Assembly: GCA_019637635.1 (NCBI GenBank)
Contig: JAHBVI010000004.1
Span: 6,497 to 70,496, forward strand
Source of the DNA: Anaerolineae bacterium
Lineage (GTDB): Bacteria; Chloroflexota; Anaerolineae; Promineifilales; Promineifilaceae
Length of the DNA stretch: 64,000 nucleotides
Direction of reading: 5' to 3'
Below the pieces are notes generated by a model. The model was not told the origin of the DNA. It did no database searches and was given only the letters and a program-made list of their open reading frames with translations. Position numbers and translations under genes: made by a program. Below, one piece after another: positions 19,745 to 62,456 of the stretch (position 1 is the stretch's first letter; the number at the start of each line of letters is the position of its first letter).

Positions 19745-19779
19745 CCGATAACCGATTACCGATTACGGATTACCGATTT
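19745..19779. repeat. heptamer tandem array (CCGATTA x5, variants)
   Basis: ccgataa ccgatta ccgatta cggatta ccgattt. Contains the stop codon of the BCCP gene (..EIGNP*). Confidence 0.9.
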
Positions 19780-20266
19780 CCACCAACACCTCATCCCGCG
19801 CTACCGTCTGCCCTGGCGTCACATGCACGGCCGTGACCACCCCACGCAACGGCGCTCGAATTTCGTTCTCCATCTTCATCGCTTCCAGCACCAGGATGGA
19901 ACTGCCCGCTTCCACGGCGTCGCCCACCTGCACCCGCATGTGCGTGATCAGGCCGGGAATGGGCGCTTTGACACGGCCGTCGCCGCTGCGGGGTCGGCTC
20001 ACCACTGCATCCAGGTCTCTAATCTCCAGCCGGTGCAGCCCGCTAAACGCCTTGATCCAGGTGAGATGGGGATCCATGACAAACTCATACGGCCGTTCAT
20101 CCACCACCAACCACTCCAACTCCCCATGCAACAGCGCCGCCTCCGGCAGCAGCACCTTCACCCGCTGCCCATCCACCTCCACCTCATAGCCCGACCCATT
20201 CGGCGACGGCAAATTCAACATTACATCATACGTGTGCCCGTCTATGGTGACTTGTAAGTTACTCAT
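19763..20266 (-). CDS. biotin carboxyl carrier protein of acyl-CoA carboxylase
   Basis: C-terminal biotinyl domain with EAMKMENEI (biotinyl-Lys in the AMKM motif). Confidence 0.8.
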   Translation of the reverse strand: MSNLQVTIDGHTYDVMLNLPSPNGSGYEVEVDGQRVKVLLPEAALLHGELEWLVVDERPYEFVMDPHLTWIKAFSGLHRLEIRDLDAVVSRPRSGDGRVKAPIPGLITHMRVQVGDAVEAGSSILVLEAMKMENEIRAPLRGVVTAVHVTPGQTVARDEVLVEIGNP

Positions 20267-20279
20267 AACGCCCTTGTTT

Positions 20280-20349
20280 CGTAACCCGTAATCCGTAAAC
20301 CGTAAACCGATTACGGATTACGCATCACGGATTACGGATTACCGATTCT
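20280..20349. repeat. inverted heptamer arrays (CGTAATC-type x4 then GGATTAC-type x6), hairpin-forming
   Basis: Ten consecutive 7-nt units read directly. The second half is the reverse complement of the first. Spans the BC/BCCP junction and supplies the BC stop codon (..RRIGNP*). Confidence 0.9.
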
Positions 20350-21813
20350 CCTGCTTTCCCGATGCCAACCCGTCGCCAACCGTTCCGGGGCCGCCGGGTC
20401 AAACTGCTGGTGCCGCCGGATATAGGTGATGGCGGCAATCACCGCCAGGTCGCGCAAATGGGGCGCGGCTGCGCCGTTTTCCAGGGCAGGTTCTTTGAGC
20501 GAGCCGGTGTGGTAACGGCCGTTCACAAACCCCTCCGCCTGTACAATCTGCTGCAATAACGGGATGTTCGTCGGAATGCCCGCCGCCGCAAAATCGGCCA
20601 ACCCCTGGCGCAGCCGGGCCATGCTGGCCACCCGATCCGGCCCCCAGGTTGTGAGTTTGGCAAAAAGCGGCGCATACGCCGCCGGTACCGGGCAACCACT
20701 ATAAGCATAGGTGTCTACGCGAATATCTGGCCCCGTTGGCAGCCGCAGCCGCGTTAACTTTCCCGGACTGGGCAAAAAGTGGCGCTGGGGGTCCTCGGCA
20801 TAAATACGGGCCAACATGGCCCAACCGCGCAACTGAACGTCCGCCTGCCGAAATGAGAGGGGTTCTCCCGCCGCGACGCGCAGTTGCTCTTGCACCAGGT
20901 CTACCCCGGCGCGCATCTCCGTCAGTGAATGTTCCACCTGGATGCGGGCTTTGATTTCGCTAAAGTAGAAACAGCCCTCATCCGTGACCAGGAATTCCAC
21001 CGAGCCGACATTTTGGTAGTGGAAAAGATGGGCAATGGCAACGGCCGTGTCACACAACTTCTGTCGTTGCGCTGGCGCCAGGCAAGGGGCGGGCGACTCT
21101 TCCACCACCTTCTGGTTGTGGTACATAATCGAGCCTTCTCGCTCGCCCAGGCAAACCAGGTTGCCGTACCGGTCGCCCAAAACCTGCACGCTAATCTGGT
21201 GAGCGGGCATGATCGCTTTTTCCAGATACACACGCAAATCGCTGTAGTCGGCCTGCGATTCCTGTCCCTGGCGAATGGCAGCCGCCAGCCACGTGGACGA
21301 CGGGACAAGACGAGAGCCACGCCCACGCCCGCCCTGGTATGACTTGATGACCAGCGGGTAGCCCATCATGTCGGCCGCTTGCTGCAATTCAATGGCATCC
21401 TCACGGCCGTAAGCCTCCGGCGAACTCTCTACCGTCAAAAAACCGGCCTCCCGCACCCGCGCCAGCGCCGCCAGCTTGTCCCGCGTCTGCTGCAAAATTT
21501 CCGGCGACGGCCCAATAAAGGTCAGCCCCGCATCCAGACACGCCTGGGCAAAATCCGCCTCCTCCGCTAAAAAACCATAGCCGGGATAAATACCGTCCAC
21601 CCCCCGCACCTGCGCCAATTGCACAATCGCCGGGACATCCATAAAAAAGTCCGGCGACTCCACACGCACACATTCATCCGCCAGCCGCACATGCAGCGAA
21701 TTAATATCGGAGGGATCGTAGACGGCCACGGCCGTGACCCCCATCTCCCGGCACGCCCGCACCGCCCGCACCGCAATTTCCCCCCGGTTGGCAATTAGAA
21801 TCTTGTTGAACAT
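20332..21813 (-). CDS. accC: biotin carboxylase subunit of acetyl/acyl-CoA carboxylase
   Basis: MFNKILIANRGEIAVRAVRACREMG N-terminus and ATP-grasp motifs. Start moved to ATG 21813; the listed extension lies in a repeat array. Confidence 0.85.
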   Translation of the reverse strand: MFNKILIANRGEIAVRAVRACREMGVTAVAVYDPSDINSLHVRLADECVRVESPDFFMDVPAIVQLAQVRGVDGIYPGYGFLAEEADFAQACLDAGLTFIGPSPEILQQTRDKLAALARVREAGFLTVESSPEAYGREDAIELQQAADMMGYPLVIKSYQGGRGRGSRLVPSSTWLAAAIRQGQESQADYSDLRVYLEKAIMPAHQISVQVLGDRYGNLVCLGEREGSIMYHNQKVVEESPAPCLAPAQRQKLCDTAVAIAHLFHYQNVGSVEFLVTDEGCFYFSEIKARIQVEHSLTEMRAGVDLVQEQLRVAAGEPLSFRQADVQLRGWAMLARIYAEDPQRHFLPSPGKLTRLRLPTGPDIRVDTYAYSGCPVPAAYAPLFAKLTTWGPDRVASMARLRQGLADFAAAGIPTNIPLLQQIVQAEGFVNGRYHTGSLKEPALENGAAAPHLRDLAVIAAITYIRRHQQFDPAAPERLATGWHRESRRIGNP

Positions 21814-21833
21814 CTCCACCTTCCTGAATAGGG

Positions 21834-21900
21834 TGGCAGGTTGCAGGTTGCAAGTTGCAGGTAAAAGCACTCACCTGCCACTTGCTACTTGCCACTTGCC
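21834..21900. repeat. inverted heptamer arrays (TTGCAGG x4 / ACTTGCC x4)
   Basis: tggcagg ttgcagg ttgcaag ttgcagg - 11-nt spacer - acctgcc acttgct acttgcc acttgcc. Lies at the CT/BC junction. Confidence 0.85.
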
Positions 21901-21907
21901 ACCCTCT

Positions 21908-23467
21908 CTACATCGGCGAAATCCCATGTTTGCGGGCCACGTGCCGCTCCCGTTTGGAGAGTGTCAGTTCCAGCGCCCGGATCAGGGTGCGGCGCGTATC
22001 GCGGGGCTGGATCACATCATCAATCAGCCCCCGCGCCGCGGCCACATAGGGATTGTTAAAGCGCGTCTCGTAATCTTCTACCAACTCCTGCCGTCTGGCA
22101 TCCGGGTCGGCCGCTTCCTGCACCTCTTTGCGGAAGAGAATGTTGACCGCCCCTTCCGCGCCCATCACCGCAATTTCGGCATTGGGCCAGGCGTAGAGCA
22201 GGTCGCCGCGTAACCCTTTGCTGCTCATCACACAGTACGCGCCGCCATAACTCTTGCGCAAAATGACCATCAGCTTGGGCACGGTAGCCTCACTGTAGGC
22301 GTAAATCAGCCGCGCTCCGTTGCGAATGATGCCGCCATACTCCTGGTCTTTGCCCGGCAAGAAGCCGGGAACATCTTGCAGGGTGATGATGGGCACGTTG
22401 TAGGCGTCGCAAATGCGGATGAAGTGGGTGGCTTTGATACTCGCCTTGATGTCAATGCAGCCCGCCAGCACCATCGGCTGGTTGGCGACGATGCCCACCA
22501 CATACCCATTGAGCCGGGCGAAACCCACCACCATGTTTTGCGCCCACAGTTGATGCACTTCAAAGAAACGGCCGTCATCCACCAAACTGGCAATCACCCG
22601 GCGCACCTCATACGGCTTGTGTGGGTCGGTAGGTACGATTTCTTCCAATTCCGGGCAGGGGCGGTGGGGGTCGTCGAGCGGCCGCATATACGGCGGATCA
22701 TCCTGGTTATTGCCGGGCAGGTAACTGAGCAGTTCCCGCACCCGCGCCAGGCACTCTTTATCGTCGCCGGTCAGAAAATGGCAGACGCCGCTCTCCTGGC
22801 TGTGCATCAGGCCGCCGCCCAACTCCTCAAACGTCACGTCTTCCTGCATCACCGCCTTCACCACCTGCGGCCCGGTGATGAACATGTAGCTCTTCTCCGT
22901 CATAAACACAAAATCCGTCAGCGCCGGAGAATAAACCGCCCCACCCGCGCACGGCCCCATGATGACGGAAATCTGGGGGATGACGCCGGACGCCTCACAG
23001 TTAGCGTCGAAAATTTTGGCGTATCCGCCCAGGCTGTCTACCCCTTCCTGGATGCGCGCCCCGCCGGAGTCGTTGATGGCGATAAACGGGCAGCCATACT
23101 GCAAGGCCATACGCATCGCTTTGGCAATTTTGTTGGCGTGCATCTCCCCCAACGAGCCGCCCATCACGCTGGCATCCTGAGACGCAGCCATGACGTGACG
23201 GCCGTTGACCAGCCCAAAACCGACCACCACCCCATCGCCATAACGTGACCCCTTACCACCCACATAGTTCTCATACCGGGGCAGCGCCAGGGAATCAATC
23301 TCCTCAAACGTGCCCGTATCAAACAGCAAATCCAGCCGCTCACGGGCCGTCAGCCGCCCTTTGGCGTGTTGGCTGGTGGTGTCCTTCTCCGTCCCCCGCG
23401 CCTGGCACTTCCGCTTATCCAATTCTTCCTTGTAGACCTGCATCTCTTTAATCATCTTCAACCTCAC
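21908..23467 (-). CDS. acyl-CoA carboxylase carboxyltransferase subunit (PccB/AccD5-like, fused beta-alpha CT)
   Basis: About 520 aa. Motifs include GRLTARERLDLL, GGARIQEG, GPCAGGAVYSPALTDF and GGAYCVM, typical of the propionyl/acetyl-CoA carboxylase beta chain. Confidence 0.85.
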   Translation of the reverse strand: MRLKMIKEMQVYKEELDKRKCQARGTEKDTTSQHAKGRLTARERLDLLFDTGTFEEIDSLALPRYENYVGGKGSRYGDGVVVGFGLVNGRHVMAASQDASVMGGSLGEMHANKIAKAMRMALQYGCPFIAINDSGGARIQEGVDSLGGYAKIFDANCEASGVIPQISVIMGPCAGGAVYSPALTDFVFMTEKSYMFITGPQVVKAVMQEDVTFEELGGGLMHSQESGVCHFLTGDDKECLARVRELLSYLPGNNQDDPPYMRPLDDPHRPCPELEEIVPTDPHKPYEVRRVIASLVDDGRFFEVHQLWAQNMVVGFARLNGYVVGIVANQPMVLAGCIDIKASIKATHFIRICDAYNVPIITLQDVPGFLPGKDQEYGGIIRNGARLIYAYSEATVPKLMVILRKSYGGAYCVMSSKGLRGDLLYAWPNAEIAVMGAEGAVNILFRKEVQEAADPDARRQELVEDYETRFNNPYVAAARGLIDDVIQPRDTRRTLIRALELTLSKRERHVARKHGISPM

Positions 23468-23471
23468 GACT

Positions 23472-23528
23472 ACAACGGATGGGGAAATGAGCGGATGAAG
23501 AAAATCCGTTCATTTCGCCGTCCGTTGT
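23472..23528. repeat. 57-nt imperfect nested palindrome at the PPTase/CT junction
   Basis: acaacggatgg..aaatgagcggat-gaagaaa-atccgttcattt..ccgtccgttgt. Outer and inner arms are complementary, with 1 mismatch each. Confidence 0.75.
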
Positions 23529-23530
23529 TG

Positions 23531-24205
23531 TCACCCCACCGCAATCGTCAACACAAACCCATCCTCCACCCGCCACCAGCCGGTTAAGGGGGGGGCAGGG
23601 CGGGGCAAACGGCCGTTATCACAGCGAATGGCAAAGGGCGTCCAGATTCCCGGCGGCTGGGCCACCGGCTCAATCAGGCAGCTTACGGCGCGGGTGTTCA
23701 CCGACAGCCCCAGGTGCAACGCTTTCAACACCGCTTCTTTGGCGCTCCACACGGCCGTTTCCCAAACCACCCGCTCCTGCCCCACCAGCCCATACCCCAG
23801 AGCAATCTCCGCCAGCGTAAAATACTCTTCGGCAAAGCCCACCGGGCGTGACTGGATCAATTCTATATCGGCCCCGATGGGAGCGTGTGCTCTTTCGGTG
23901 GCGGCCACAAAGGCACGGCCGTGTGCATGACTGATGGAAATGGAAAAGCGGTGATCGGTAATCGGTAATCGGTAATCGGGGACGCCATCCGCGTTGTTGG
24001 TGATCGTGATCATGTCCAGGGGCAGCGTCACGCCGTTCGTTTCCCAGATGACGGTTTGCAGCAGCCGCTTGGCCGTCCAGCGCCCCAGCAGCCAATCCGC
24101 GCGCCGTTTGTCCGTCTTCAACTCCTGAAACCGCGCCAATTCCGTCTCGGTCAAATAATCACATGCCGGAATCTCGTGGTGCGTTTGTGTCAACCAATGA
24201 ATCAT
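23531..24205 (-). CDS. Sfp-type 4'-phosphopantetheinyl transferase
   Basis: PPTase motifs IGADIE and WSAKEAVLKA. Size about 220 aa. Confidence 0.75.
   Translation of the reverse strand: MIHWLTQTHHEIPACDYLTETELARFQELKTDKRRADWLLGRWTAKRLLQTVIWETNGVTLPLDMITITNNADGVPDYRLPITDHRFSISISHAHGRAFVAATERAHAPIGADIELIQSRPVGFAEEYFTLAEIALGYGLVGQERVVWETAVWSAKEAVLKALHLGLSVNTRAVSCLIEPVAQPPGIWTPFAIRCDNGRLPRPAPPLTGWWRVEDGFVLTIAVG
23949..23979. repeat. heptamer array (CGGTAAT x4) inside the PPTase coding sequence
   Basis: cggtgat cggtaat cggtaat cggtaat. On the sense (-) strand it reads ATTACCG and encodes ..DYRLPITDHRF.. Confidence 0.9.
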
Positions 24206-24226
24206 GGTAATCAGTAATCGGTAATC
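24206..24226. repeat. heptamer array (GGTAATC x3) abutting the PPTase start codon
   Basis: ggtaatc agtaatc ggtaatc directly 5' of ATG 24205. Confidence 0.8.
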
Positions 24227-24276
24227 GTCTGTCGAGCAATAACCGGCATCATCGTTTTGAGAAACCCCTTCCCCCT

Positions 24277-24362
24277 GTCATTCCGAACGAAGTCTTCGGA
24301 GTGAGGAATCTCTCACCTGTACAAATGGGAGGGATTCCTCCTCGAAGACTCGTCGGAATGAC
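24277..24362. repeat. 86-nt imperfect inverted repeat (about 30-nt arms), REP/MITE-like hairpin
   Basis: gtcattccgaacgaagtcttcggagtgaggaatc ... gattcctcctcgaagactcgtcggaatgac. Intergenic between the KR-DH and PPTase genes. Confidence 0.7.
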
Positions 24363-24391
24363 ACGAGAAAGTTCACATTATTTTGTTAACG

Positions 24392-26959
24392 CTACAAAGT
24401 GACCTGGCCTGGCAATGAAACTGTTTTGTAGCCCGTCAGGGTCAGGTAAACAGCGCCTTCCGTGTCCACAACCTGAGCGTTGAACTCTTCGCCGCCGTTG
24501 ACAGCTTCCACAATGGCATACAGGCGACGGCCGTCCACCACCTCCCGCTCCTGCCGATAAACCGATACCGCGCCAATCGCCAGCGGCAGGGCCATCGTCT
24601 GCCGCTGCCGGATTTGCCACACACCGGCCGTCTGGAAGCACAGTTCAATCAGGCGCGGGGCCAACAGTTCCAGCGCATCCGCCGGATTCATGTTAGGCGG
24701 CAAATTCTCCGCCAGCAGCCCAATCGCCCGGCTGCCTTCCACCTGCACCGCTTCTAGCACCTGATACGCCGGGCCGTGGAAGTAGATGTCATAAATCGCC
24801 TCTTTGCCGATGTCCAGTGTAGCCGGTGGGGTGAAATCAACCGACGCCACCTCTGCTGGTTTACGACTCATGCACACTGTAGCTGTAAAGTGCAGTTTCT
24901 CCTGCAAACCTCCTTTCAATTCACGGCGAGAATGGAGGGCCGCATACACCAGCAGATCGTCGCCATCGGGCACGGCCGTACCGCGCAAATACAACGTCTG
25001 CGGTTCCATCCGGTAAAACTTAAAGGGAGCGTGGAACTGTTCGTTGAATACGGCCGTGACGTGATAATCCGGCGCGATGGTCTGGGCCAATTCCGCAAAC
25101 GCCTCCGTCCCCATCACCCCCGGCAGCAGCGGCGTCCCCTCCATGGCATGGTCATAGAGAAACGGTTGCTCCTTTGGGTCCAACACCGTTTCCACTTCCC
25201 ACCCGCCATACACCTTCGCCGCCGCCAAGCCACCAACCAACAAAAACTCCTCTGCGCCCCCGCGTCTCCGCGTTAAAATCCCGCCGCTTTCATCCCACTC
25301 ATCCACCAGCAAACCCAGTTTGCCGCCCACCAGCACCTCGCCGCCGCCTACCAGCAACTCCCGGCGTACAGTGGGAATCCCGGCAGCCGGTGGCAGCATC
25401 TCAATGCCCGCATACTCCATAATCTTGGGAATCGAGCCGCGTGTGGCCATGCCTATGCCGCCCCAGGCCGTCCAGTCAATGGCAATCGCCTTTGTCTCTG
25501 GCCGTGTCCGTTGCCGGCTGCTGGTGAGTTTGCACAGCAGGTCATTGGCCGCGCTGTAATCCGTCTGCCCGGCGTTGCCAAAACGGCCGGCTACCGAACT
25601 AAAGACCACCGTCGCCGCAACAGGCAAATCCTGGGCGGCGTGCAGCAGGCTGTAAAAGCCGTCCGCCTTGATGTCATACACCAGGTCAAACTGGGCGGCG
25701 TCTTTCTGGTTCAGCGCCTTGCTGATTTCAATGCCGCCGGCATGAACCAGCACGTCAATCCGGCCAAACTGCTGGCGGATTTCGGCCACGATCCCGGTCA
25801 GGGCCTCATGGTCGAGCAAATTGACGCTGCGATACACGGCCGTGCCGCCAACCTTTTCCACCGCCTCAATCGCGCTCAACGCCGCTTCCAACCGCTCCAC
25901 CGCTGCCAGCTTCTTCTCAATCATCACCGGCGTCGGCTTTTCACCCGCCACCTTTGTTTCTTCAATAAGCTGCTGCTTCAAGGCATCCTTGTCGGCGCGG
26001 AAAAGGGCAATTTGGGGATCGGCGCGGTCGGGTTCCGGCGTCAAGTCCAGCAGGTAGAACGTGCCGCCGCTGGCTGCGGCCAGGTCGGCCACAATGGCGC
26101 TGGTAATGCCACCCGCCGCCCCCGTCACCAGGAAAACCTGTTTGTCTGGCTGTGGCCGGTGTCCCCACCGAGCCACGTCGGGTGGCACGGTCTGAAGACC
26201 GGCCACAGCATCATAAGTTGCGGGTTGTTCCATCAAGGTGATGGTGTAACGGCCGTCCCGCCAATACCCCACCTCCACACAACCCGGATCCGCCAGCGTT
26301 TCGGCAATCAGAAGGTCGGCAAAAGCGGCCGTTTTGCGGCTGGCCTCAAAATCTACGGCCTTCACCAGGACGGACGGCCGTTCCCGTTTATACGCTTTGG
26401 TAAAGCCGGTGACGCCGCCGCCCAACGGAGCGATTGCCGGTTCCGGCCCATAGCCATGCAGCCCGCCCATTCGTGTGGCGGATACCAGGAACGCGCCCGG
26501 TTCGCACACCGCGTCATACAGCGCCCGCATGGTCACAGCCAGGTTTTTCACCCGCACCCGGTTCGCCTCCCGCCAGTCAGCCAGGGACATCGTCGCCAGA
26601 TCAGGCTCCACGTCCAGCGCGGGCAGCCAGTAGACACCCTGCACCGGCCCTTCGGCCAGCCAGGTTTGCGCCTGCGCTGCTACCGCTTCGGCAGCCAGGG
26701 CCACGTCCAGCAGCAGCACGGCCACGCCCAGCTTTTCCAGCTTTTTAACCAGCGCCTTACCCACGCCGCCCTCGTCCAGGGCCACCACCACGCGGCTGGC
26801 TTCGTTTAAGAGGACGCCGGTTGGTTTGCATTGGGTGAGCGACGGCCGTAAGGCGGGCATCGGTACGCGGCGGGGCATCGTGTCCGCATCGGCCAGGGTA
26901 TATTCCGGTTCAATTTGGGGAATCAGGGGTGGCGCAGTGGTCGTCTCCGGGGCGACCAC
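24392..26959 (-). CDS. polyketide/PUFA-synthase-type ketoreductase + PS-type dehydratase protein (pseudo-KR / KR / DH)
   Basis: Rossmann motif FLVTGAAGGITSAIV and KR catalytic YSAAND. DH motif LYDHAMEGTPLLPGVMGTEAF (HxxxGxxxxP). GTG start 12 nt after the megasynthase stop. Confidence 0.8.
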   Translation of the reverse strand: MVAPETTTAPPLIPQIEPEYTLADADTMPRRVPMPALRPSLTQCKPTGVLLNEASRVVVALDEGGVGKALVKKLEKLGVAVLLLDVALAAEAVAAQAQTWLAEGPVQGVYWLPALDVEPDLATMSLADWREANRVRVKNLAVTMRALYDAVCEPGAFLVSATRMGGLHGYGPEPAIAPLGGGVTGFTKAYKRERPSVLVKAVDFEASRKTAAFADLLIAETLADPGCVEVGYWRDGRYTITLMEQPATYDAVAGLQTVPPDVARWGHRPQPDKQVFLVTGAAGGITSAIVADLAAASGGTFYLLDLTPEPDRADPQIALFRADKDALKQQLIEETKVAGEKPTPVMIEKKLAAVERLEAALSAIEAVEKVGGTAVYRSVNLLDHEALTGIVAEIRQQFGRIDVLVHAGGIEISKALNQKDAAQFDLVYDIKADGFYSLLHAAQDLPVAATVVFSSVAGRFGNAGQTDYSAANDLLCKLTSSRQRTRPETKAIAIDWTAWGGIGMATRGSIPKIMEYAGIEMLPPAAGIPTVRRELLVGGGEVLVGGKLGLLVDEWDESGGILTRRRGGAEEFLLVGGLAAAKVYGGWEVETVLDPKEQPFLYDHAMEGTPLLPGVMGTEAFAELAQTIAPDYHVTAVFNEQFHAPFKFYRMEPQTLYLRGTAVPDGDDLLVYAALHSRRELKGGLQEKLHFTATVCMSRKPAEVASVDFTPPATLDIGKEAIYDIYFHGPAYQVLEAVQVEGSRAIGLLAENLPPNMNPADALELLAPRLIELCFQTAGVWQIRQRQTMALPLAIGAVSVYRQEREVVDGRRLYAIVEAVNGGEEFNAQVVDTEGAVYLTLTGYKTVSLPGQVTL

Positions 26960-26970
26960 CAGGCCACCCT

Positions 26971-52821: not shown

Positions 52822-52830
52822 ATTCATAAC

Positions 52831-53645: not shown

Positions 53646-53649
53646 AAAT

Positions 53650-54129: not shown

Positions 54130-54133
54130 CAAC

Positions 54134-54182
54134 GAGATTGAGAGATTGGGAGAGTAAGAGATTGGTCAATGTTCCAATCTCC
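54134..54182. repeat. GAGATTG array with a partial inverted copy after paaD
   Basis: gagattg agagattg ggagagta agagattg gtcaatgtt ccaatctcc. Confidence 0.8.
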
Positions 54183-54343
54183 GAAACTCCCCATCTGCCC
54201 CGGTGTTTTCTCAATCGGCATAAGCGCCGACTTACACTGCTTGACAATTTGGTGGTTGCTTCTAAAATTGCCCCGCCATTGCAGATGGAATTCAAAATTT
54301 GAAAAAGTCCAACAGTGATGTGGCACACCTCGATGGATGAAAA

Positions 54344-54371
54344 TTCATAATTCATCCTTCATAATTCATAA
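54344..54371. repeat. AT-rich heptamer array (TTCATAA x4) upstream of acpP
   Basis: ttcataa ttcatcc ttcataa ttcataa. Confidence 0.8.
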
Positions 54372-54392
54372 TTTTCAGAGGAGATCAGGTAA

Positions 54393-54632
54393 ATGAGTGA
54401 TACACAGACTCGTATAACCGCTATTATCGTGGATTTATTAGGCGTAGACGAAGAACAGGTAGTGCCTGAAGCGCGTTTCCGCGAAGACCTGGAAGCTGAT
54501 TCGCTGGATTTGGTCGAACTCATTATGGCTTTTGAAGAAGAGTTTGGCGGCGAAATTTCCGATGATGAAGCCCAAAAAATCACGACTGTGGGCGAAGCGG
54601 TTTATTACATTGACCATCGTATGGCGGTTTAG
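54393..54632 (+). CDS. acpP: acyl carrier protein (canonical, discrete)
   Basis: [20 protein letters not shown] with the canonical DSL phosphopantetheine site. 79 aa. Confidence 0.9.
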
Positions 54633-54638
54633 CGCCTA

Positions 54639-55343: not shown

Positions 55344-55363
55344 TTACCCAATTACGCGATTAC
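55316..55363. repeat. six-unit 8-nt-period array forming a loopless palindrome
   Basis: gtaattga gtaattgg gtaattac gcaattac ccaattac gcgattac. Supplies the TAA stop of the ChlI-like gene. Confidence 0.85.
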
Positions 55364-56508
55364 TTTCGCTCCCACACGGCCGTCAGCCGGGCGTCTTCCT
55401 CGGATTGGTCGGCGAAAAATTTGTCCAGGGCGTGGCTCTGGCGTTGGCGCAGGGCCAGCAGGGCGACGGCGCGGATGTCTTCTGGGGTCACGGCCGTGCG
55501 TTCATCTGCCGCCGCATGGGCCCGCGCCGCTTCAAACAGGGTAATCTCCGCCCGACCGGACTCAATTTGCAGGGCCGCCACCAGCGCCAACCCTAACTGG
55601 CGGGCTTCATCTGTCAGTGTCACCTGCGGCAGGCGGTCACGCGCCTGCTGAATTTCGTCAGCCAGGGCAATGGTTGCTTCAGCATAACCGGCGGCAAAGA
55701 GGTCCGGCTGCCGCCGGTAAACGGTGGCTCGTTCATATGCCTGGTAGCGCAGGTCGGCGTCCGCCAGGCCGCGCACAATAGCCCGCAGCCCAAAACGATC
55801 CATTAGCTGCGGGCGCAGCCAGCCCTCCTCCGGGTTCATGGAGCCAATGAGCATGATGCGCGCCTTGTAGGTCAGCTTGAGCGGGCCGCGGCGCACGGTG
55901 TAATGCCCCTGCGCCGCCGCGTCTAACATGGCGTCGGTAATACCATCATCCAGCAAATTCACTTCGTCAATATAAACAATGTGCCCATCGGCATGGCCGA
56001 GCAGACCCCGTTCCAGCCGCACCTTCTGCTGTTCCAGCGCCAGCCGCTCGTTAATGCCGCCGACCACGTCTTCCAGACGAGAATTCAGGGGCAGCTCAAA
56101 AATACGCACTTTGTCGGTGACGGTCAGCGGGTCGCCATGACCAAATTTGGTGGCGCAATCCTTACACACGCCATCCATGCCGTATAGTTCCACATCTTCT
56201 TCGGTGCAGCCATAGGCGCACAGGCTGCGCCGGGTGGTAGGCAGCAGGTCGGTGAGGGCGCGCACGGCCGTTGTTTTGGCCGTGCCGCGTGGGCCAATGA
56301 GCAAAACGCCGCCAACGAGTGGGTTGATCAGGGAGAGGGTCAGCGCCAGCTTCATCTCATACTGGCCGACAATGGCTAAAAAGGGGAATGGCTCGACTTC
56401 GGCGACGCCGATGTCCGGCGCGGGCAAACGGCTGACCTGCCCGGCGGGGGAGGCCAGCAATATCTCCAGCAGCTTGGAGCGTGGTTGGCTGGCTGTTTCG
56501 TCACTCAT
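55360..56508 (-). CDS. ChlI/BchI-family AAA+ ATPase (Mg-chelatase subunit I-like)
   Basis: FPFLAIVGQYEMKLALTL, Walker A GPRGTAKTT, Walker B VYIDEVNLLDD, and sensor regions (GSMNPEEG.LRPQLMDRFG). Start set at ATG 56508, overlapping the thioesterase stop by 8 nt. Confidence 0.7.
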   Translation of the reverse strand: MSDETASQPRSKLLEILLASPAGQVSRLPAPDIGVAEVEPFPFLAIVGQYEMKLALTLSLINPLVGGVLLIGPRGTAKTTAVRALTDLLPTTRRSLCAYGCTEEDVELYGMDGVCKDCATKFGHGDPLTVTDKVRIFELPLNSRLEDVVGGINERLALEQQKVRLERGLLGHADGHIVYIDEVNLLDDGITDAMLDAAAQGHYTVRRGPLKLTYKARIMLIGSMNPEEGWLRPQLMDRFGLRAIVRGLADADLRYQAYERATVYRRQPDLFAAGYAEATIALADEIQQARDRLPQVTLTDEARQLGLALVAALQIESGRAEITLFEAARAHAAADERTAVTPEDIRAVALLALRQRQSHALDKFFADQSEEDARLTAVWERK

Positions 56509-56980
56509 GGCTGTCTTGTTTGTGCTGCTGCAAGCGGTAAGCCTGGCGTTGGGCGGCACGCTCAAAACGGGACCGTTCCTCGTCGGTGGTGCATAAGAGC
56601 GGGGGGACGGGAGTGGGACGGCCGTGTTCGTCCAATGCCACGTAAACAAAGTAAGCGGTATTGGTGTGGGTGGTCTGCCCGGTCAGCACATCTTCGGCAG
56701 TTACCACCACCCGCGTTTCCATGGAGGTGCGCCCCACCCAACTGACCTCGGCCGTGACCGTCATCAGGTTGCCGATGTGTACGGGTGAGTGAAAACGCAT
56801 AGAGTCTACAGCGACGGTGACCGCCGGATGGCGGGCATGTCGGATGGCCGCCATGCCGCCGGCTTCGTCACAAATTTTCATAATGTAGCCGCCATGCACA
56901 TTGCCCATGACGTTGGCGTGGGACGGCCCCATGACCTGGGTGAGGATGACGCGGGATTCGGCGGGGCTTTTGGGGGGCAT
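56501..56980 (-). CDS. hotdog-fold acyl-CoA thioesterase (YciA/BFIT-like)
   Basis: ANVMGNVHGGYIMKICDEAGGMAA and the downstream pattern VTVAVDSMRFHSPVHIGN. Confidence 0.75.
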   Translation of the reverse strand: MPPKSPAESRVILTQVMGPSHANVMGNVHGGYIMKICDEAGGMAAIRHARHPAVTVAVDSMRFHSPVHIGNLMTVTAEVSWVGRTSMETRVVVTAEDVLTGQTTHTNTAYFVYVALDEHGRPTPVPPLLCTTDEERSRFERAAQRQAYRLQQHKQDSHE

Positions 56981-56992
56981 AGGGGAGCAGGG

Positions 56993-57083
56993 ATCGTAAT
57001 CCGTAATCCGTTATCCGTAAGCCGTAAGCCGTAAGCCGAAACCAGATGTCGGATTACGGCGCACGAGTTACGGATTACGCATC
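56993..57083. repeat. inverted heptamer arrays (TCCGTAA/GCCGTAA x6 then CGGATTA-type x5)
   Basis: atcgtaa tccgtaa tccgtta tccgtaa gccgtaa gccgtaa ... cggatta cggcgca cgagtta cggatta cgcatca. Abuts the stop of the 57082 ORF. Confidence 0.9.
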
Positions 57084-57462
57084 AGTCCATATCCGGCCTG
57101 GTTTCCGAAACGTAGCTTAACTTTTCGGGGAACTCCTCAAACATGTCAATAATCTGGTGCGGCAGCGCGGGAAACATGGGAGGGAGGGGCACGGCCGTGG
57201 GTAGTTTCAGGCGTTGTGGTTGTGGCGGCGGTTTCATCATGGGCCGGTCAATCGGGCGGGACCGTTTACGCAGCAAGCGTTGATCATCACTCAGAAAGCC
57301 GAGATACGAGCCGCCGGTATCAAAAACTTCACGTCCCACGACAAAACCAATCCATTCCCCATCCACGTTAAAGACGTTACCTTTTTCATACACAGCCACC
57401 CACTCGCCATCTGATCGGTAAATTGGAATCATTTCTCCTCTTATTGTGACTACAGGTCGCAA
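57082..57462 (-). CDS. small hypothetical protein (repeated GEW[IV] beta-strand motifs)
   Basis: ORF with repeated DGEWVAV / DGEWIGFV / GGSYLGFL strands, then a Pro-rich tail. No confident family. Confidence 0.4.
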   Translation of the reverse strand: MRPVVTIRGEMIPIYRSDGEWVAVYEKGNVFNVDGEWIGFVVGREVFDTGGSYLGFLSDDQRLLRKRSRPIDRPMMKPPPQPQRLKLPTAVPLPPMFPALPHQIIDMFEEFPEKLSYVSETRPDMD

Positions 57463-57588
57463 CAGCCAACGTGAAGGGCACGATGCGACAATACGCTGAC
57501 TTTGGTTCCATATTATGCCAGCAGCATTATAGTGAAGGGGGCACGGGTGGGCAACTTATGTGATGAGGCGAACGACCGGCTAATTTGG

Positions 57589-58701
57589 TTATATGCTGAA
57601 GAAGGCGGAGAGTACGGCCGTATCCCTTCCTACCTCGGCCGTTTCTGGCAGCGGCACGGCCGTGTGCTGCCGTATCCAGGTGGTGAAAATGTGCCCATTC
57701 ACCATTACCTGGCGTCCCCGGTCTACCACCAGGCCAAACTGTCGCAGCCGTCGTTCGGCTTCGGCCAGGGTAAAGGGACTAAATGGCGCAGGGGACGCCA
57801 CCGGGGCCCCTACTAATTCGGCCAAAATCTGGCGCTGGCAGGGGTCGAAATTTGCCCACCACTGGCTAAACCAGGGGGACAATTCCGCCACGAGCTGTGT
57901 CTGCACGGCGCCGGCATTGGGCACACCGTCCAGCCGTTTGTGGTACAGCCAGCGCGCGGCCGTTAGTTGCAGCAAGAAGGGCAATGTGCCCGCCAACCGC
58001 TGTATTTGCTGCACGTCGGTGGCGCTGAAAGGGGCGCCGACCTGGAGGGCGGGATGGGTGATCAGCGGCGGGATGACGGCCGTTTCCAGTTCGGCCAGAT
58101 AAAGAGGCGTGGGCGAAAAAATGTTGAAAAAGGGAGAGGTGGCCGGCAATCCCAGGCGGCTGCCCATATGGTACAGGTCGGCCAGCGCGGTGGTGACACA
58201 GACCAGGTCGTAATCATTGACGCTGGTCATAGCCCGTAGTTCCGTCAGGAAATGGCGGTCAAACGTCTCGGTATGCAGCGCGTCAAAATCATCCAGCAGC
58301 AGCACCATACGATGCAAGGGGAAGTGGCACAGGAACGCCTCCACATCGTAAATGCTGGTCTGCTCCGGCGGCGACTCTTTCCACAAGAAACCGGTATGCA
58401 CCTGGCCCAGACTCATCTTCAACTGCGTCAATATGCGGTAATAAAACTGGCCCGGCGTTTTGCAAGAAGTCATGTCCACATAGACCATCACCATGCGTTC
58501 TGGGTGGCGCACGTGGCGCACCAGTACCGTGGGGTGGGCAATGTGGCGCAGAAAGGAGGTTTTGCCGGAACGGGGCAGGCCGATGATGTTCGCCGATTGG
58601 GGATGAGCGCCGCCGATAATTTCAAAGAGTTGGGTGATCTGGCGTTGACGGCCGTAAAAATCAGCAGGGCTTTGCACAGGATGACCAACAGTGTAAGGCA
58701 T
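57589..58701 (-). CDS. P-loop ATPase (archaeal-ATPase/ORC-like or STAND-like), unknown function
   Basis: Walker A GLPRSGKTS, Walker B VLLLDDFD, C-terminal helical (winged-helix-like) region. Confidence 0.55.
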   Translation of the reverse strand: MPYTVGHPVQSPADFYGRQRQITQLFEIIGGAHPQSANIIGLPRSGKTSFLRHIAHPTVLVRHVRHPERMVMVYVDMTSCKTPGQFYYRILTQLKMSLGQVHTGFLWKESPPEQTSIYDVEAFLCHFPLHRMVLLLDDFDALHTETFDRHFLTELRAMTSVNDYDLVCVTTALADLYHMGSRLGLPATSPFFNIFSPTPLYLAELETAVIPPLITHPALQVGAPFSATDVQQIQRLAGTLPFLLQLTAARWLYHKRLDGVPNAGAVQTQLVAELSPWFSQWWANFDPCQRQILAELVGAPVASPAPFSPFTLAEAERRLRQFGLVVDRGRQVMVNGHIFTTWIRQHTAVPLPETAEVGRDTAVLSAFFSI

Positions 58702-58870
58702 AATTGCGCTCCTGTCTGCGTAAAACCAGATGGCTCACCACACAAGGCAGGCTTCTCATGGCGGCGGCAGGTATCAAATTGAATAACTACAACGTGAAAA
58801 AGTTTCTCGACTATTATGCCCGTATTGGCCGGGAAAATGTAGCCAACCTGATAGGAGAAAAGTACCAACA

Positions 58871-58905
58871 ATTGACAGTTGTCAATTGTCAACTGTCAAT
58901 TGCTC
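58871..58905. repeat. heptamer array (ATTGTCA-type x5) containing the GT4 stop codon
   Basis: attgaca gttgtca attgtca actgtca attgctc. Confidence 0.85.
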
Positions 58906-60027
58906 GTAGAGCTGCTGCAACTGCCGGGCGGATTGCTCCCAGGTGAAGCGGCGCGCCTGGCGAAAACCGGCAGCCACCAGGCGGGTGCGCTCCGCCGGGT
59001 CGGTCAACAGATGATGCATAGTCTGTGTCCAGTCAGCCTGATCATGCGGTGAGAGTTGGATGGCGGCGTTACCCGCTACTTCCGGCAGGGAGGAGGCGTT
59101 GGAGGTAACAACCGGGACGCCGCAGCCCATTGCTTCTAACAGCGGCAGGCCAAACCCTTCATACAGGCTGGGGAAAACAAACAGGGCCGCGCCGCTGTAG
59201 AGAGCGGGCAAATCCTCATCGGCCACAAAACCGGGGAAATGGACACGGCCGTCCATCCCCTGCCGCCCCACCTCTGCCATCATCTCCTCCATCAACCACC
59301 CTTTGCCGCCGGTGATAATCAGATGGTGGGGGTGGGTTTGGGCAATCGGCTGGAAGGCGCGGATGAGCATCTGGTAATTTTTGCGCGGCTGCACGGTGCC
59401 CACCGCCAGAATGTAAGGCGTGTCTCCCAATTGATATTGGCGGCGCACGGCGGTGAGCTTCTGTTCATCTGTTACCGGCTGGAAACGGGCGTGGACGCCG
59501 CTGTACAGGACGGTCACTTTTTCCGGTGGTACCTGCCACACGGCCGTCAGGTCATCTTTGGTCGCCTGTGAATCGGCCAGAATGTGCGTGGCCCGGCCAA
59601 CTGACCAGGGCACAACCCGGTTCAAATAAGCCACCAACTGTTCGGGGAATACCTCCGGGTAATGGACGAAGGAGAGATCATGCACGGTGAGCAGGGTGGG
59701 GATACGGCCGTAAACCGGCGGCAGCACAAAATCAGGTGAATGAAATAAATCCAGCTTCCCGGTAAACCACTGCACCGGCAAGGGCAGCCGCAGCCGGTAC
59801 CACAGCCGGTAAAGCCAGCGTTCATCTACCGGCGCGGTGTGCAGGTGTACATTGTCAGTTTGGGGGATGGGGTTGGGAACAGGAGAGGCGGTGGGGTTTT
59901 TGGCGGCGAAGAAGTGATAGTCGTTGTGGGGGTCTACGGCCGTGAGTGCAAAAATCAACTCGCGGGTGTATCGGCCGATCCCGCCCCCCTGGGTAATCGC
60001 GGCGGTAACGTCAATGCCAATTTTCAT
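58882..60027 (-). CDS. GT4-family (GT-B) glycosyltransferase
   Basis: MKIGIDVTAAITQGGGIGRYTREL.. N-terminus and C-terminal FPSLYEGFGLPLLEAMGCGVPVVTSNASSLPEV. Start moved to ATG 60027; the extension is repeat-encoded (..LPNLQSPIS). Confidence 0.8.
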   Translation of the reverse strand: MKIGIDVTAAITQGGGIGRYTRELIFALTAVDPHNDYHFFAAKNPTASPVPNPIPQTDNVHLHTAPVDERWLYRLWYRLRLPLPVQWFTGKLDLFHSPDFVLPPVYGRIPTLLTVHDLSFVHYPEVFPEQLVAYLNRVVPWSVGRATHILADSQATKDDLTAVWQVPPEKVTVLYSGVHARFQPVTDEQKLTAVRRQYQLGDTPYILAVGTVQPRKNYQMLIRAFQPIAQTHPHHLIITGGKGWLMEEMMAEVGRQGMDGRVHFPGFVADEDLPALYSGAALFVFPSLYEGFGLPLLEAMGCGVPVVTSNASSLPEVAGNAAIQLSPHDQADWTQTMHHLLTDPAERTRLVAAGFRQARRFTWEQSARQLQQLYEQLTVDN

Positions 60028-60093
60028 GGAGATTGGAGATTGGAGATTAGGGAGCAGAGATTGAACAATCTCCAATCTCTGATCTCCAATCTC
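60028..60093. repeat. inverted GAGATTG/CAATCTC arrays at the GtrA/GT4 junction
   Basis: ggagatt x3 agggagc agagatt gaa caatctc caatctc tgatctc caatctc. Confidence 0.9.
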
Positions 60094-60099
60094 TAACCC

Positions 60100-60666
60100 C
60101 TATTTATCCACATCGCCATACGTCCAATAGCGGTTCACAAAGAAGTTCCAGAAGAGGATGACCAGCACCGACAGCGCCAGGGCCATATTGTCGCCAATGC
60201 GTTGGGCAATATCTGGGCCGAGACCGCCAAACAGTTCGGCTGCCAGCCGGGTAAACGGCAGATGGGTCAGAGCCATAATGGGCAAACGCAGCACAATGCC
60301 GGTGACGCTGACCAGGAAAAATTGGGCAAACTGGCGCCCAATGGGCTTGGAACGGGAATCGGGGTACGTCCAGTAACGGTTCCAGGTGAAGTTGCTGATA
60401 ATGGCACAAACAAAGGAGATGGTACCGGCTAATAAAGCGGGGATGGTTCCTTCTATCCATTCCTGGCTCAAACCAAGCGAAAGTAAAAATTCGTCAAACG
60501 GTGTGCCTGGTATAATAAGATTGCTAAATGGCCCTAACAACAAATTGTAAATGCCAAAATCCACCACAAAACCAAAAGCGCCAACAACCAGAAATTTGAT
60601 AAATCTTTCTGCTTCTTTGGTATTGACGCCCATGCGCCCGGCTGCACTTGCAAACATTGCTACCAT
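60100..60666 (-). CDS. GtrA-family membrane protein
   Basis: RFIKFLVVGAFGFVVDFGIYNLL.. and a C-terminal NFFVNRYWTY motif. Four TM helices. Confidence 0.8.
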   Translation of the reverse strand: MVAMFASAAGRMGVNTKEAERFIKFLVVGAFGFVVDFGIYNLLLGPFSNLIIPGTPFDEFLLSLGLSQEWIEGTIPALLAGTISFVCAIISNFTWNRYWTYPDSRSKPIGRQFAQFFLVSVTGIVLRLPIMALTHLPFTRLAAELFGGLGPDIAQRIGDNMALALSVLVILFWNFFVNRYWTYGDVDK

Positions 60667-60791
60667 AAAAATAACATTCTCCCGATTCTTGAAATTTTAT
60701 CTGCTGTGGCCGGTCTCTGACCGCGCCACCCCTCGCTGTGGCCGGTCTCTGACCGTGCCACTTTTGGTTCCTCATACCAAACCGCCGCATT

Positions 60792-62369
60792 TTAGCGGAT
60801 AACGGCCGTCTGGTTCAATCCCTCTTTAGTGCTGTTTGCCCGGCGCTCATATTCCAGCAGTTGCAGCAAGCCAAACATCACCCCCAGGTGAATATAGATA
60901 TTGTTGACGTATAGTTTATCCACGAGATGATGAACCGTCACGGCCGTCCACGCCCCCAACAAGCCTAAAGCAATACCGCGCACCGGCCAATCAAGCCGGC
61001 GCAATTGGCGGATGGTCTGGAAAAAGACGGCCGTCCACAACACTACATACGCCGCCAACCCCCAAACGCCCGTTTCCGCCAGGATATTCAAATAATAGTT
61101 GTGGGCGTGACCCAACGGGTAGGGCCAGTTGAGAAGCGCATAGGTATCATAAACCGGTTCATAGTTGCCAAAACCCACACCCAACCAGACATTCTCGCGG
61201 GCCATATCCAGCGCCGCCTGCCAGTGCGCCAACCGCTCTAAGACGGCATAGTTGGCGTCGTTAATGCCCACGCCACGCACGTCACCAAAACGTAAATCTT
61301 CGCTAAAACTGGTGATACGCTCCGTTACCGAAGCAGGCACCAGGCCAAGCCGCACCCCGCCCCAAAAGAGTAAGCCCGCCAACAGCAATAAAGTGACACC
61401 CTGCCACAATTTTTTCGGCCAAAACAACACAATCATCGCCCCACCCACCGCCAGACTCAGCCACGCCCCCCGGCTCCAGGAGAAAAGAACGGCCAGGATA
61501 CTGAGTACGGCCGTAACCCCGGTGAAGAGCGCCAGGGTGAGGAGGGGAAGGGGGGCGTAATGCGTGATGCGTGCCACTCGCCACCTGCCACCTGCCACCT
61601 GCCGCCAAATAGCCGCTAACATTCCCAAAAACGCTCCCACAGCCAGCAGCGCCGTCAGGTTCATGTAACCGGCGTAGGGGTTGGGCTGCTCAAAAGTGCC
61701 ATAGGCGCGGTAGAAACGGCCGAGTACCAGAAAATGCTCTGGCCCATCCCCCCGCAGGCCAAACTGCCAGATGCCGATGAGCGCCTGGCTTAGACCGGCG
61801 AGGAGGAGGATGGTGAGGACGTAAAACGTAAAACGTAATCGGTAATCGGTAATCGGTGATCTGTAATCGGTAATTCGTAATCGGTTTACGGAATACGGAT
61901 CACGGGTTACGGCCAGATCAACGACCAGGAGCATCACGGCCGTGACCTGCAACCACTTAATCAATTCCTTGAAACCAAATGACAGGGAGGTGGCATGAGG
62001 CAGGGAAAGCGCCGCGACAAACATGAACAGCGCCAGCGGCAGATTCAAAAACGTTTGGGGGATAAAAATGCGCCGGTAAGCCAGCCCGCGCCCCAGCCAG
62101 ACGGCCAACGTGAACAGCAGCAGCAGTTGACCACTGTCCAGCAGCGATGGCCCCCGCGCGATGTTCTCCAGCGCGCCCCAGGGCGCCGCCAACAGCGCCG
62201 CAAATAAACCAACCAACGGATTGATGAAAGTGAGCAGGAGAACGGCCGTGCCCCCCACCAACCCCACCGCCCACGCCAACGGCAATTGGGCCAGCAGCAA
62301 ACCGGTCAGCACGGCCGTGAATATGCCGGCCAAAGGCCAATTGGCGCGGGGGCGAGAGAGACGAATCAT
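60792..62369 (-). CDS. O-antigen ligase/polymerase-family (Wzy_C) membrane protein
   Basis: Polytopic, with a Wzy_C-like loop region (SWSRGAWLSLAVGG....). Two heptamer arrays are embedded in-frame. Confidence 0.7.
   Translation of the reverse strand: MIRLSRPRANWPLAGIFTAVLTGLLLAQLPLAWAVGLVGGTAVLLLTFINPLVGLFAALLAAPWGALENIARGPSLLDSGQLLLLFTLAVWLGRGLAYRRIFIPQTFLNLPLALFMFVAALSLPHATSLSFGFKELIKWLQVTAVMLLVVDLAVTRDPYSVNRLRITDYRSPITDYRLRFTFYVLTILLLAGLSQALIGIWQFGLRGDGPEHFLVLGRFYRAYGTFEQPNPYAGYMNLTALLAVGAFLGMLAAIWRQVAGGRWRVARITHYAPLPLLTLALFTGVTAVLSILAVLFSWSRGAWLSLAVGGAMIVLFWPKKLWQGVTLLLLAGLLFWGGVRLGLVPASVTERITSFSEDLRFGDVRGVGINDANYAVLERLAHWQAALDMARENVWLGVGFGNYEPVYDTYALLNWPYPLGHAHNYYLNILAETGVWGLAAYVVLWTAVFFQTIRQLRRLDWPVRGIALGLLGAWTAVTVHHLVDKLYVNNIYIHLGVMFGLLQLLEYERRANSTKEGLNQTAVIR
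61555..61603. repeat. heptamer array (GCGTNAT x2, then ACCTGCC-type x5) inside the O-antigen ligase gene
   Basis: gcgtaat gcgtgat gcgtgcc actcgcc acctgcc acctgcc acctgcc. Encodes ..QVAGGRWRVARITHYAP.. Confidence 0.85.
61820..61910. repeat. 13-unit heptamer array (CGTAAAA/GGTAATC/GGATCAC variants) inside the O-antigen ligase gene
   Basis: Thirteen consecutive 7-nt units read directly. Encodes ..TRDPYSVNRLRITDYRSPITDYRLRFTFYV.. Confidence 0.9.
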
Positions 62370-62372
62370 GGG

Positions 62373-62456
62373 GAGATTGGAGATTGGAGATTGGAGATTG
62401 GGAGATTGGGAGATTGTAATCTCTTAATCTCCTAATCTCTCAATCTCTTAATCTCC
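62373..62456. repeat. inverted GAGATTG x6 / TAATCTC x6 arrays at the UXS/ligase junction
   Basis: gagattg x4, ggagattg x2, then taatctc ttaatctc ctaatctc tcaatctc ttaatctcc. Fills the whole intergenic gap. Confidence 0.9.

Follow-up and report, generated by a model that had tools for sequence, protein, structure and literature searches.

The short tandemly repeated repetitive (STRR) sequences of cyanobacteria were reportedly described as heptamers by Mazel and colleagues in 1990. The canonical words of STRR1 to STRR3 are CCCCAGT, TTGGTCA and CAACAGT. Heptameric repeats, known in cyanobacteria since 1990, were found in 2007 to be over-represented in many bacteria, the cases among such simple sequence repeats including the STRRs of Calothrix and Nostoc and the GGGAATC repeats of Xanthomonas, and neither function nor mechanism has been established for them (PMC4692102). 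The Xanthomonas repeats occur as inverted pairs and overlap stop codons, with no function found (PMC4692102). In Chloroflexus aurantiacus, (GATAGRA)n satellites consist of one word at 22 loci (Subirana & Messeguer 2019, PMC6749651). The present work deals with a 64,000-nt stretch of an Anaerolineae bacterium of the Promineifilaceae (contig JAHBVI010000004.1, positions 6,497 to 70,496; hereafter the window), in which tandem arrays of 7-nt units, frequently as inverted pairs, lie at gene junctions and, translated in frame, within genes. They are best read as a lineage-wide class of heptanucleotide repeats in Chloroflexota of the Ardenticatenia/Promineifilales/Caldilineae type, the counterpart of the cyanobacterial STRRs.

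The likeness to STRRs, to which an earlier note on this DNA had drawn attention, is apt: the units are tandem and 7 nt long, several dispersed word families occur in one genome at many loci, mostly between genes, and the carriers are filamentous bacteria. Unlike STRRs, the repeats have a host nearest to Chloroflexota and not a heterocystous cyanobacterium, GAGATTG and CGGTAAT prevail among their words, many of the arrays are read in frame as protein, and inverted pairs of strict polarity dominate the junctions. The heptamers of Xanthomonas (GGGAATC) and Nostoc (GGGGA(C/T)T) share the period of 7 and a location near stop or start codons, some overlapping the stops, and in those bacteria too the same genes flank arrays in related species while length and sequence vary (Rehm et al. 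2015, PMC4692102). They have runs of three or more G, prefer four units, form G-quadruplexes (G4) and are strongly non-coding, whereas the arrays of the window are often coding; as its units have at most GG, and most of its words no G run at all, they cannot form canonical G-quadruplexes. The (GATAGRA)n satellites are likewise heptamer-derived tandem repeats in Chloroflexota, but they belong to the class Chloroflexia, and no coding role or palindromic pairing is reported for them. The closest known behaviour to that of the coding arrays, as judged from sequence, is shown by the Rickettsia palindromic elements (RPEs; Ogata et al. 2000, 2002; PMC10969869), palindromic DNA that lies in frame in unrelated, often essential genes and is read as extra peptide segments at tolerant positions; RPEs, however, are about 100-150 bp long with a family consensus, whereas the window's arrays have arms of variable length, no core, and only a 7-residue repeat in common. 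REP/BIME and REPIN sequences (Bertels & Rainey 2011, PMC3116915) are also hairpin doublets at junctions, abundant and lineage-specific, which might stabilise mRNA, but REPs have a fixed sequence of 20-40 nt and a RAYT gene, neither of which was seen among the arrays and genes of the window. The repeats are thus of a known kind, STRR-type heptamers; what appears unreported is the new phylum and vocabulary, the frequent translation in frame, the persistence of sites while words turn over, and the strict polarity of the pairs. No published description of these repeats, their translation or their polarity rule was found in a literature search of incomplete coverage.

That the arrays exceed chance was evident from several counts, all of which refer to the window unless another source is named. 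Tandem Repeats Finder gave 35 period-7 rows at the places first named, and a strict match/mismatch run finder gave 17 runs at period 7, five at period 8, one at period 9 and none at periods 4, 5, 6, 10, 11 and 12. Three tandem units of GAGATTG, with up to two mismatches, were matched 21 times, as opposed to 0 in 100 dinucleotide shuffles. All of the word families named earlier were recovered (GAGATTG, CGGTAAT, GGTTGCA/ACTTGCC, xxACAGT, ATTGTCA and TTCATAA). The families in the window are GAGATTG/CAATCTC (nine arrays), CGGTAAT with CGTAAxC variants, GGTTGCA/ACTTGCC, TGCCACC, xxACAGT, CAATTGT and AATTCAT, and additional to these is an array of 8-nt period, rightly placed at 55316, which proved to be an inverted pair (GTAATTGx/CAATTACx, 55316-55363) spanning a 16-nt junction. 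The range of 3 to 13 units that had been given needs correction at its upper end, as single arrays reach about eight units at most and 13 is obtained solely by joining neighbours at 61819-61912.

After merging, the arrays make up 23 sites, or 2.06% of the window, with 10 canonical words. Twelve of the sites lie largely between genes and another two run across gene ends, against an expectation of 1.4 (binomial p = 2e-9), so an association with gene boundaries beyond chance is borne out. The view that the arrays punctuate junctions describes 12-14 of the 23 sites; the remaining 9-11 lie inside genes, in frame, and had been overlooked. With the window divided post hoc and intergenic gaps counted from a length of 15 nt upwards, 13 of 16 were occupied in the array-bearing segments (19700-34450 and 52750-62460) and 0 of 13 elsewhere (1-17300 and 35000-52700); no period-7 array was found at 1-17 kb or 35-52 kb of the window, and the array-free parts hold ordinary genes.

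The repeats are real and a trait of the lineage. Three tandem copies of GAGATTG were found in at least 119 stretches from more than 100 genomes, in a scan that held one genome per species. Among the matches listed, nearly all were metagenome-assembled genomes (MAGs) of Chloroflexota, from the Ardenticatenaceae, Promineifilaceae (Ca. Leptofilum, Leptovillus) and Caldilineaceae or labelled Anaerolineae or Chloroflexia; a few were Verrucomicrobiota and Bacteroidota. Related loci totalling about 900 kb contained 337 period-7 arrays against 4, 15, 53, 30, 8 and 6 at periods 5, 6, 8, 9, 10 and 11, and other words of the window recurred there. Since they recur in an independently assembled orthologous locus (L035, from isolate CFX4) and in over 100 further assemblies, the arrays are not artefacts of assembly. 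The triple GAGATTG was also met in predicted viral contigs, one of 14,991 nt (L208, 1-14991; IMGVR_UViG_3300032295_003689) and 21 other IMG/VR stretches. The former is a genuine tailed-phage structural module, with major head protein, protease, portal, large terminase and tape measure, and bears five heptamer arrays in several words, including TGAAAAT/GGAGATT, CATTCGT/ACGAATG, CCGAATG and AGTGCTC. Arrays in a phage module are what would be expected of a cell-wide mutational process.

Comparison with relatives centred on the minus-strand operon that, by Pfam, encodes an acyl-CoA dehydrogenase (ACAD), a PfaA-like synthase, a KR-DH protein, a PPTase, a carboxyltransferase (CT), a biotin carboxylase (BC) and a BCCP. 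The CFX4 locus is the orthologue of window positions 20190-28300, at 84-88% nucleotide identity. At the BCCP/BC junction the window has an inverted pair of four CGTAAxC and 5.6 GATTACG units (20280-20347, -39.7 kcal/mol), within which the BC protein ends (...RIGNP*); L035 has ACTGCxx arrays there and no long hairpin. The BC/CT pair (21832-21902, 4.4 units each of GGTTGCA and ACTTGCC, -49.8 kcal/mol) belongs to the same family in L035, with one arm two units (14 nt) shorter. The PPTase/KR-DH junction carries three units of GGTAATC (24206-24227), adjoining the PPTase start codon, and a near-perfect, non-heptamer palindrome of 86 nt (24277-24362), the entire junction folding at -78.6 kcal/mol; in L035 the place is taken by a GGAATTA/TTCATAA inverted pair, and the 86-nt palindrome is absent from L035 and not repeated in any fetched locus. 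Of the coding arrays, one inside the PPTase gene (23949-23979, minus strand, 4.4 units of CGGTAAT, read ...DYRLPITDH... in a variable loop) is kept in L035 with an equal number of units, and those of the synthase differ by 21 nt (three units) or a 24-nt insert; the array of eight translated TACGGxx units at 27829-27887 (minus strand), for example, is shorter in L035 by 21 nt, which is three units or seven codons.

When metagenomes were scanned more widely with the carboxyltransferase, 80 loci came up; the operon was syntenic in about 35 of them, their PfaA being 55-70% identical. Some of these lineages bear many arrays at homologous places in other words: AATCTGC, AAAATCC, AACCTGC, GGTGGCA, GCGAGGG or GAGATTG pairs in the PPTase loops, ACAACCG, AGCCCTC, GCGAGGG and TCTCCAG in the pre-ACP linkers, and AAATTGT/CAATTTA at the KR-DH/PPTase junction. 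Sites thus persist while words turn over. Some of the words are single-substitution neighbours (AATCTCC-AATCTGC-AACCTGC-AACTTGC; CTCCAAT-CTCCAGT), which fits mutation followed by homogenisation through slippage. About 20 of the syntenic operons are array-free, and their PPT/CT, CT/BC and BC/BCCP junctions measure -22 to +14 nt as against 63-94 nt in the window; this compactness of the array-free orthologues marks the arrays as lineage-specific insertions into tight junctions and loops. KR-DH/PPTase is the only junction that is long and structured in almost every lineage, whatever its sequence. In an alignment of 42 PPTases, the array peptides mapped to two variable loops, both of them short where relatives lack arrays, and decayed arrays persist there as loop peptides, such as QLSMVNGQL from CAATTGT.

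Translation in frame, read from the sequences, appears to be common. Because 7 and 3 are coprime, an array yields the same 7-residue repeat in every frame, and GAGATTG is free of stops in all six frames. A preference for stop-free words was considered as the cause of the vocabulary and rejected, as about half of random heptamers are by our own estimate also stop-free and several of the intergenic words contain stops. The related loci contain 118 exact GAGATTG arrays of at least three units, and 43 of these lie in frames open for at least 300 nt on both sides. Eighteen such host frames were scanned with Pfam, and most of them encode proteins with several recognisable domains, the array falling within a domain or between two: an NRPS C-A-T module, CarB, an SNF2 helicase, a molybdopterin oxidoreductase, PBP1 and RecD2, and further phosphofructokinase (PFK), HypF, ABC transporters, RACo, a HemN-like enzyme and PMT-type glycosyltransferases. 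Many of these coding arrays are inverted pairs. In the CarB of locus L084 the array peptide occupies an insertion of about 40 aa between E. coli residues 506 and 508. A protein search with (PISNLQS)x6 returned two matches, a short low-complexity query being unable to reach significance against 5.8 billion sequences.

Within the window, every inter-domain linker of the PfaA-like synthase (KS-AT-KS-ACP2 by Pfam, 1883 aa) has arrays, read for example as ...SPISNLQSP... or ...EIGDRRLEI.... All of these lie on the minus strand: six units of GGAGATT and 2.6 of CTGCTCA in the linker before ACP2 (27246-27315), 7.6 units of GGAGATT and 2.4 of TGCTCAC before ACP1 (27585-27669), 6.3 units of GAGATTG (29630-29675) and four units of TAATCTC in the opposite orientation (29793-29821, ...EIGDRRLEI...), both translated in the AT-KS2 linker, and a GAGATTG inverted pair in the KS-AT linker (31099-31150), translated inside the coding sequence. 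The Wzy-like O-antigen ligase, also on the minus strand, has two such places, from which about 35 and 19 of its residues are array-encoded. One consists of 2.7 units of GCGTGAT and 4.6 of TGCCACC (61555-61603, translated ...WRQVAGGRWRVARITHYAP...), and the other, in a loop of the protein, of ACGTAAA/GTAATCG arrays with an inverted CGGATTA array, about 13 units in total (61819-61912, translated ...TRDPYSVNRLRITDYRSPITDYRLRFTFY...). Near-identical strains were seen to differ in the synthase by whole ACP-domain units, namely L143/L144 (5954), L192/L193 (5402) and L197/L198 (5331), the differences being 345, 309 and 1017 nt and the linkers with or without heptamer arrays. An 8-nt-period array of four to five TCACCCCC units was noted inside the gene for TrmD, the tRNA m1G37 methyltransferase (48852-48892), where its translation makes an extra loop in a housekeeping enzyme.

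The explanation we favour, and consider the probable one, is that the arrays are STRR-type simple-sequence DNA, driven by slippage, selfish or neutral, and filtered by tolerance, with the hairpins as by-products. Length changes by whole units, the arrays occupy many unrelated sites, their words are common to many genomes, and they are insertions relative to array-free orthologues. The permissive sites are of two kinds: short intercistronic spacers, which the arrays enlarge to 60-190 nt from no more than 15 nt, and the surface loops of proteins or the linkers between their domains, where the arrays are read as 7-residue repeats such as PISNLQS and EIGDWRL. Replication slippage in a 7-nt register would make arrays longer or shorter; inverted pairs may arise by inverted duplication of, or template switching at, an existing array, with a bias that places the G-rich arm 5'; and words would spread between sites by ectopic conversion or re-seeding. 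Selection would mainly set where arrays are tolerated and not what they do, and the by-products would be strong intercistronic stem-loops, repeat units that serve as stop codons or start contexts, and new protein linkers. Strains that are 99.9% identical have identical arrays, and in a pair at 99.5% identity a single intergenic 7-nt unit differs; this one-unit difference is slippage, slower than at contingency loci. Close strains were searched for sites filled in one and empty in another, and no usable case turned up.

Several observations weigh against this explanation. Slippage alone leaves unexplained why over 100 genomes have GAGATTG at unrelated sites, hundreds of them in all, and why one junction can receive an unrelated word within about 15% divergence; at the roughly 85% identity that separates the window from L035, the replacements do involve unrelated words. 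The placement of arrays in the window is patchy, and gene content offers no obvious reason for it. The KR-DH/PPTase hairpin, strong in almost all lineages, may be selected. Lastly, the strict polarity of the pairs points to selection or to a specific mechanism that the slippage account does not provide. In the inverted pairs the G-rich arm lies 5' and the C-rich arm 3', with a count of 74 versus 4 by the GAGATTG pattern; an independent detector gave 59:2 for the GAGATTG family and 29:1 for other words (88:3 in total). Non-heptamer perfect palindromes of the same DNA were divided 153:124, which rules out polarity as a general property of hairpins in these genomes, and since a palindrome reads alike on both strands the polarity is neither a strand effect nor one of transcription direction. 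Its source may be biased template switching or recognition by an enzyme.

The first of the rivals holds that the inverted pairs are selected RNA stem-loops of the REP/BIME kind, which would protect against 3'-exonucleases, uncouple translation or avoid Rho, and so tune long operons. This we regard as unlikely, though it fares best among the alternatives to slippage-driven DNA. The eight hairpins given as examples in the earlier note exist, with predicted folding of -25 to -50 kcal/mol and z of -5 to -14, and many junction arrays sit exactly between the stop codon and the ribosome-binding site (RBS) or start codon, as such elements would; stabilities in that range, and a strong PPT/KR-DH hairpin of unrelated sequence in the window, in L035 and in most other lineages, speak for it as well. 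With the G-rich arm 5', moreover, transcription from either side would never leave the C-rich, G-poor arm single-stranded. Among unpaired arrays, to which the idea of Rho avoidance can also be applied, the sense strand was G-rich in 36 and C-rich in 26 of the intergenic cases, and in 48 versus 90 of the coding ones. Yet array-free orthologous operons manage with junctions that overlap or measure 14 nt at most, the BCCP/BC junction of L035 has no long hairpin, and identical inverted pairs lie within the coding sequences of many proteins. A comparison of sense and antisense folding gave no consistent asymmetry that would point to selection at the RNA level, neither strand folding consistently better. 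The hairpins are no more terminator-like than chance would give: a terminator scan found 19 sites in the window, where 16.5 were expected, and none at an array. Rfam 15 at the gathering threshold had 0 matches in the window. The roles in mRNA processing or stability, or as attenuators, that had been suggested earlier are accordingly unsupported, given the tight junctions of some 20 syntenic array-free operons, the different words in L035, the same arrays, inverted pairs included, in frame inside proteins, and the lack of a terminator or Rfam family. The arrays may have a secondary effect on mRNA decay or translational coupling; a role as conserved punctuation or contingency sequence is not supported.

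[quoted passage not shown] Such elements would account for one word at very many unrelated sites and genomes, for unrelated word swaps at one junction and for arrays in a phage genome; the strict polarity, absent from other palindromes, resembles defined ends, and in-frame insertion into housekeeping genes recalls the Rickettsia palindromic elements (PMC10969869). The pairs themselves, however, have no conserved core, consensus or loop, their arms vary in length and their spacers from 0 to 60 nt, and no target-site duplication is visible at the pairs of the window. Unpaired arrays are commoner than pairs (177 versus 78), the whole-unit indels match slippage, and no transposase or RAYT-like gene was found among the window's 50 genes.

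Contingency loci, which had also been proposed and which would here switch surface-polysaccharide and lipid genes through frameshift or promoter spacing, are very improbable. Several hosts are indeed envelope genes (Wzy-like, GT4, GtrA), the 7-nt unit is not a multiple of 3, and there is the one 7-nt indel at 99.5% identity; but the coding arrays lie in linkers and loops and not at 5' ends, the orthologues differ by frame-preserving indels in multiples of 21 or 24 nt, and the hosts include CarB, PFK, PBP1, RecD2, TrmD and acyl-CoA carboxylase. Identical arrays in 99.9% identical strains, together with the frame-preserving coding indels, argue against such switching. That the arrays are binding sites for nucleoid proteins or structural DNA such as G-quadruplexes, as proposed for Xanthomonas GGGAATC, is hardly credible despite the regular periodicity, the evenly spaced GG runs in GGAGATT and the G4 formed in vitro by Xanthomonas and Nostoc heptamer repeats (PMC4692102), since there are at least 10 unrelated words in one window, most without G runs and none with a run of three or more G, and words differ between relatives at the same site.

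Slippage-driven, tolerated simple-sequence DNA therefore continues to be the preferred reading, and the lineage is unusually informative, as it offers the repeats in more than 100 genomes at graded divergence, with pair polarity, turnover of words at kept sites and translation inside well-known enzymes. Why the unit is 7 nt, how words spread and whether the hairpins are used become questions for comparative genomics and cultured relatives. For annotation, the arrays are a source of false extensions of open reading frames (ORFs), of stop codons and of low-complexity peptides added to housekeeping proteins. A bolder proposal, to which we give little weight, sees in the heptamer palindromes a new class of mobile DNA, polar and non-autonomous, in which an enzyme, or a quirk of replication or repair specific to the lineage, would copy ssDNA hairpins with a G-rich 5' arm into junctions, phage genomes and in-frame protein linkers and loops. 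If this were true, mobile heptamer palindromes would be a generator of new protein linkers, and, together with a palindromic octamer described below, the Promineifilales/Ardenticatenia would have independently evolved the HIP-plus-STRR genome architecture of cyanobacteria.

Stop codons are supplied by arrays at several places: two proteins end in ...IGNP* inside CGGTAAT arrays, and the TGA stop of ACAD opens an array. Start codons are abutted or overlapped by some. In the operon, an ATTACCG/CGGTAAT array of five units (19744-19778), within the 17-nt Uma2/BCCP junction, provides the final codons and TAA stop of the BCCP gene (...EIGNP*). A non-heptamer palindrome (23472-23528) occupies the CT/PPTase junction; compared with L035 (3272-3342), its stem is kept and its loop inverted, GAAGAAAA versus TTTTCTTC, as would be expected from hairpin- or cruciform-mediated inversion. 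The ACAD/PfaA junction has a GGAGATT/CCAATCT inverted pair between the TGA stop and a GGAGG RBS (32626-32698, -34.9 kcal/mol), the sole pair followed by a five-U run. In the divergent intergenic region upstream of the ACAD gene lies an xxACAGT/ACTGxxx inverted pair (34382-34442, -47.4 kcal/mol), a family that we take to be the only one in the window resembling STRR3 CAACAGT. The earlier statement that most junctions of this operon carry an array or another palindrome is correct, with non-heptamer palindromes at 23472-23528 and 24277-24362 and a PfaA/KR-DH gap of 11 nt. The gene order itself (19763-34349; ACAD, PfaA-like KS-AT-KS-ACPn, KR-DH, PPTase and the CT, BC and BCCP of acyl-CoA carboxylase) is kept in about 35 metagenome loci (L132-L198).

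In the second array-rich segment lie paa genes and those for an ACP, a thioesterase, glycosyltransferases, GtrA, the Wzy-like ligase and an epimerase. At the PaaB/PaaC junction there is a perfect 26-bp inverted GAGATTG pair (52763-52821, -46.5 kcal/mol, z -14), whose two arms contain a variant unit in mirror image; this unit provides a TAG stop, PaaB ending at a GAGATTA-G unit. The PaaB frame (52203-52778) is 191 aa long with two matches to the 89-position PaaB profile, so that PaaB may be duplicated or fused here, or the ORF extended too far. A GAGATTG-type array with a short inverted partner directly follows the PaaD stop (54134-54190), and 4.6 units of AATTCAT upstream of the ACP gene (54342-54373) are unpaired and without notable structure. 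Downstream of the thioesterase gene, 6.3 units of CGTAAxC are paired with a degenerate partner (56995-57083, -47.4 kcal/mol). The 3' end of a GT4 gene bears a CAATTGT/ATTGTCA array of 4.9 self-complementary units (58869-58902), and the last unit of an inverted GAGATTG pair at the GtrA/GT4 junction (60027-60094) overlaps the GT4 ATG. At the epimerase/Wzy junction, an inverted pair of six GGAGATT and five TAATCTCT units (62372-62455, -46.2 kcal/mol) ends 2 nt before the start codon.

The palindromic octamer ACGGCCGT is a separate peculiarity of this DNA. It is present in 144 copies in the window (2.25 per kb; for example 19054-19061 and 19229-19236), where an order-2 Markov model would expect 3 and the next commonest palindromic octamer has 5, and the copies are evenly spread. 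This density matches the top of the range of HIP1, the hyper-abundant octamer palindrome of cyanobacteria (PMC4390886). No paper naming the octamer was found in a full-text search. It recurs at 1-3 per kb in some related loci (Ardenticatenaceae, Ca. Leptofilum/Leptovillus, CFX4, CFX8 and BC3.16) and is absent from others that still bear heptamer arrays. In the window, 137 of the copies lie in ORFs, with a codon phase of 88:33:16, and are mostly read Thr-Ala-Val.

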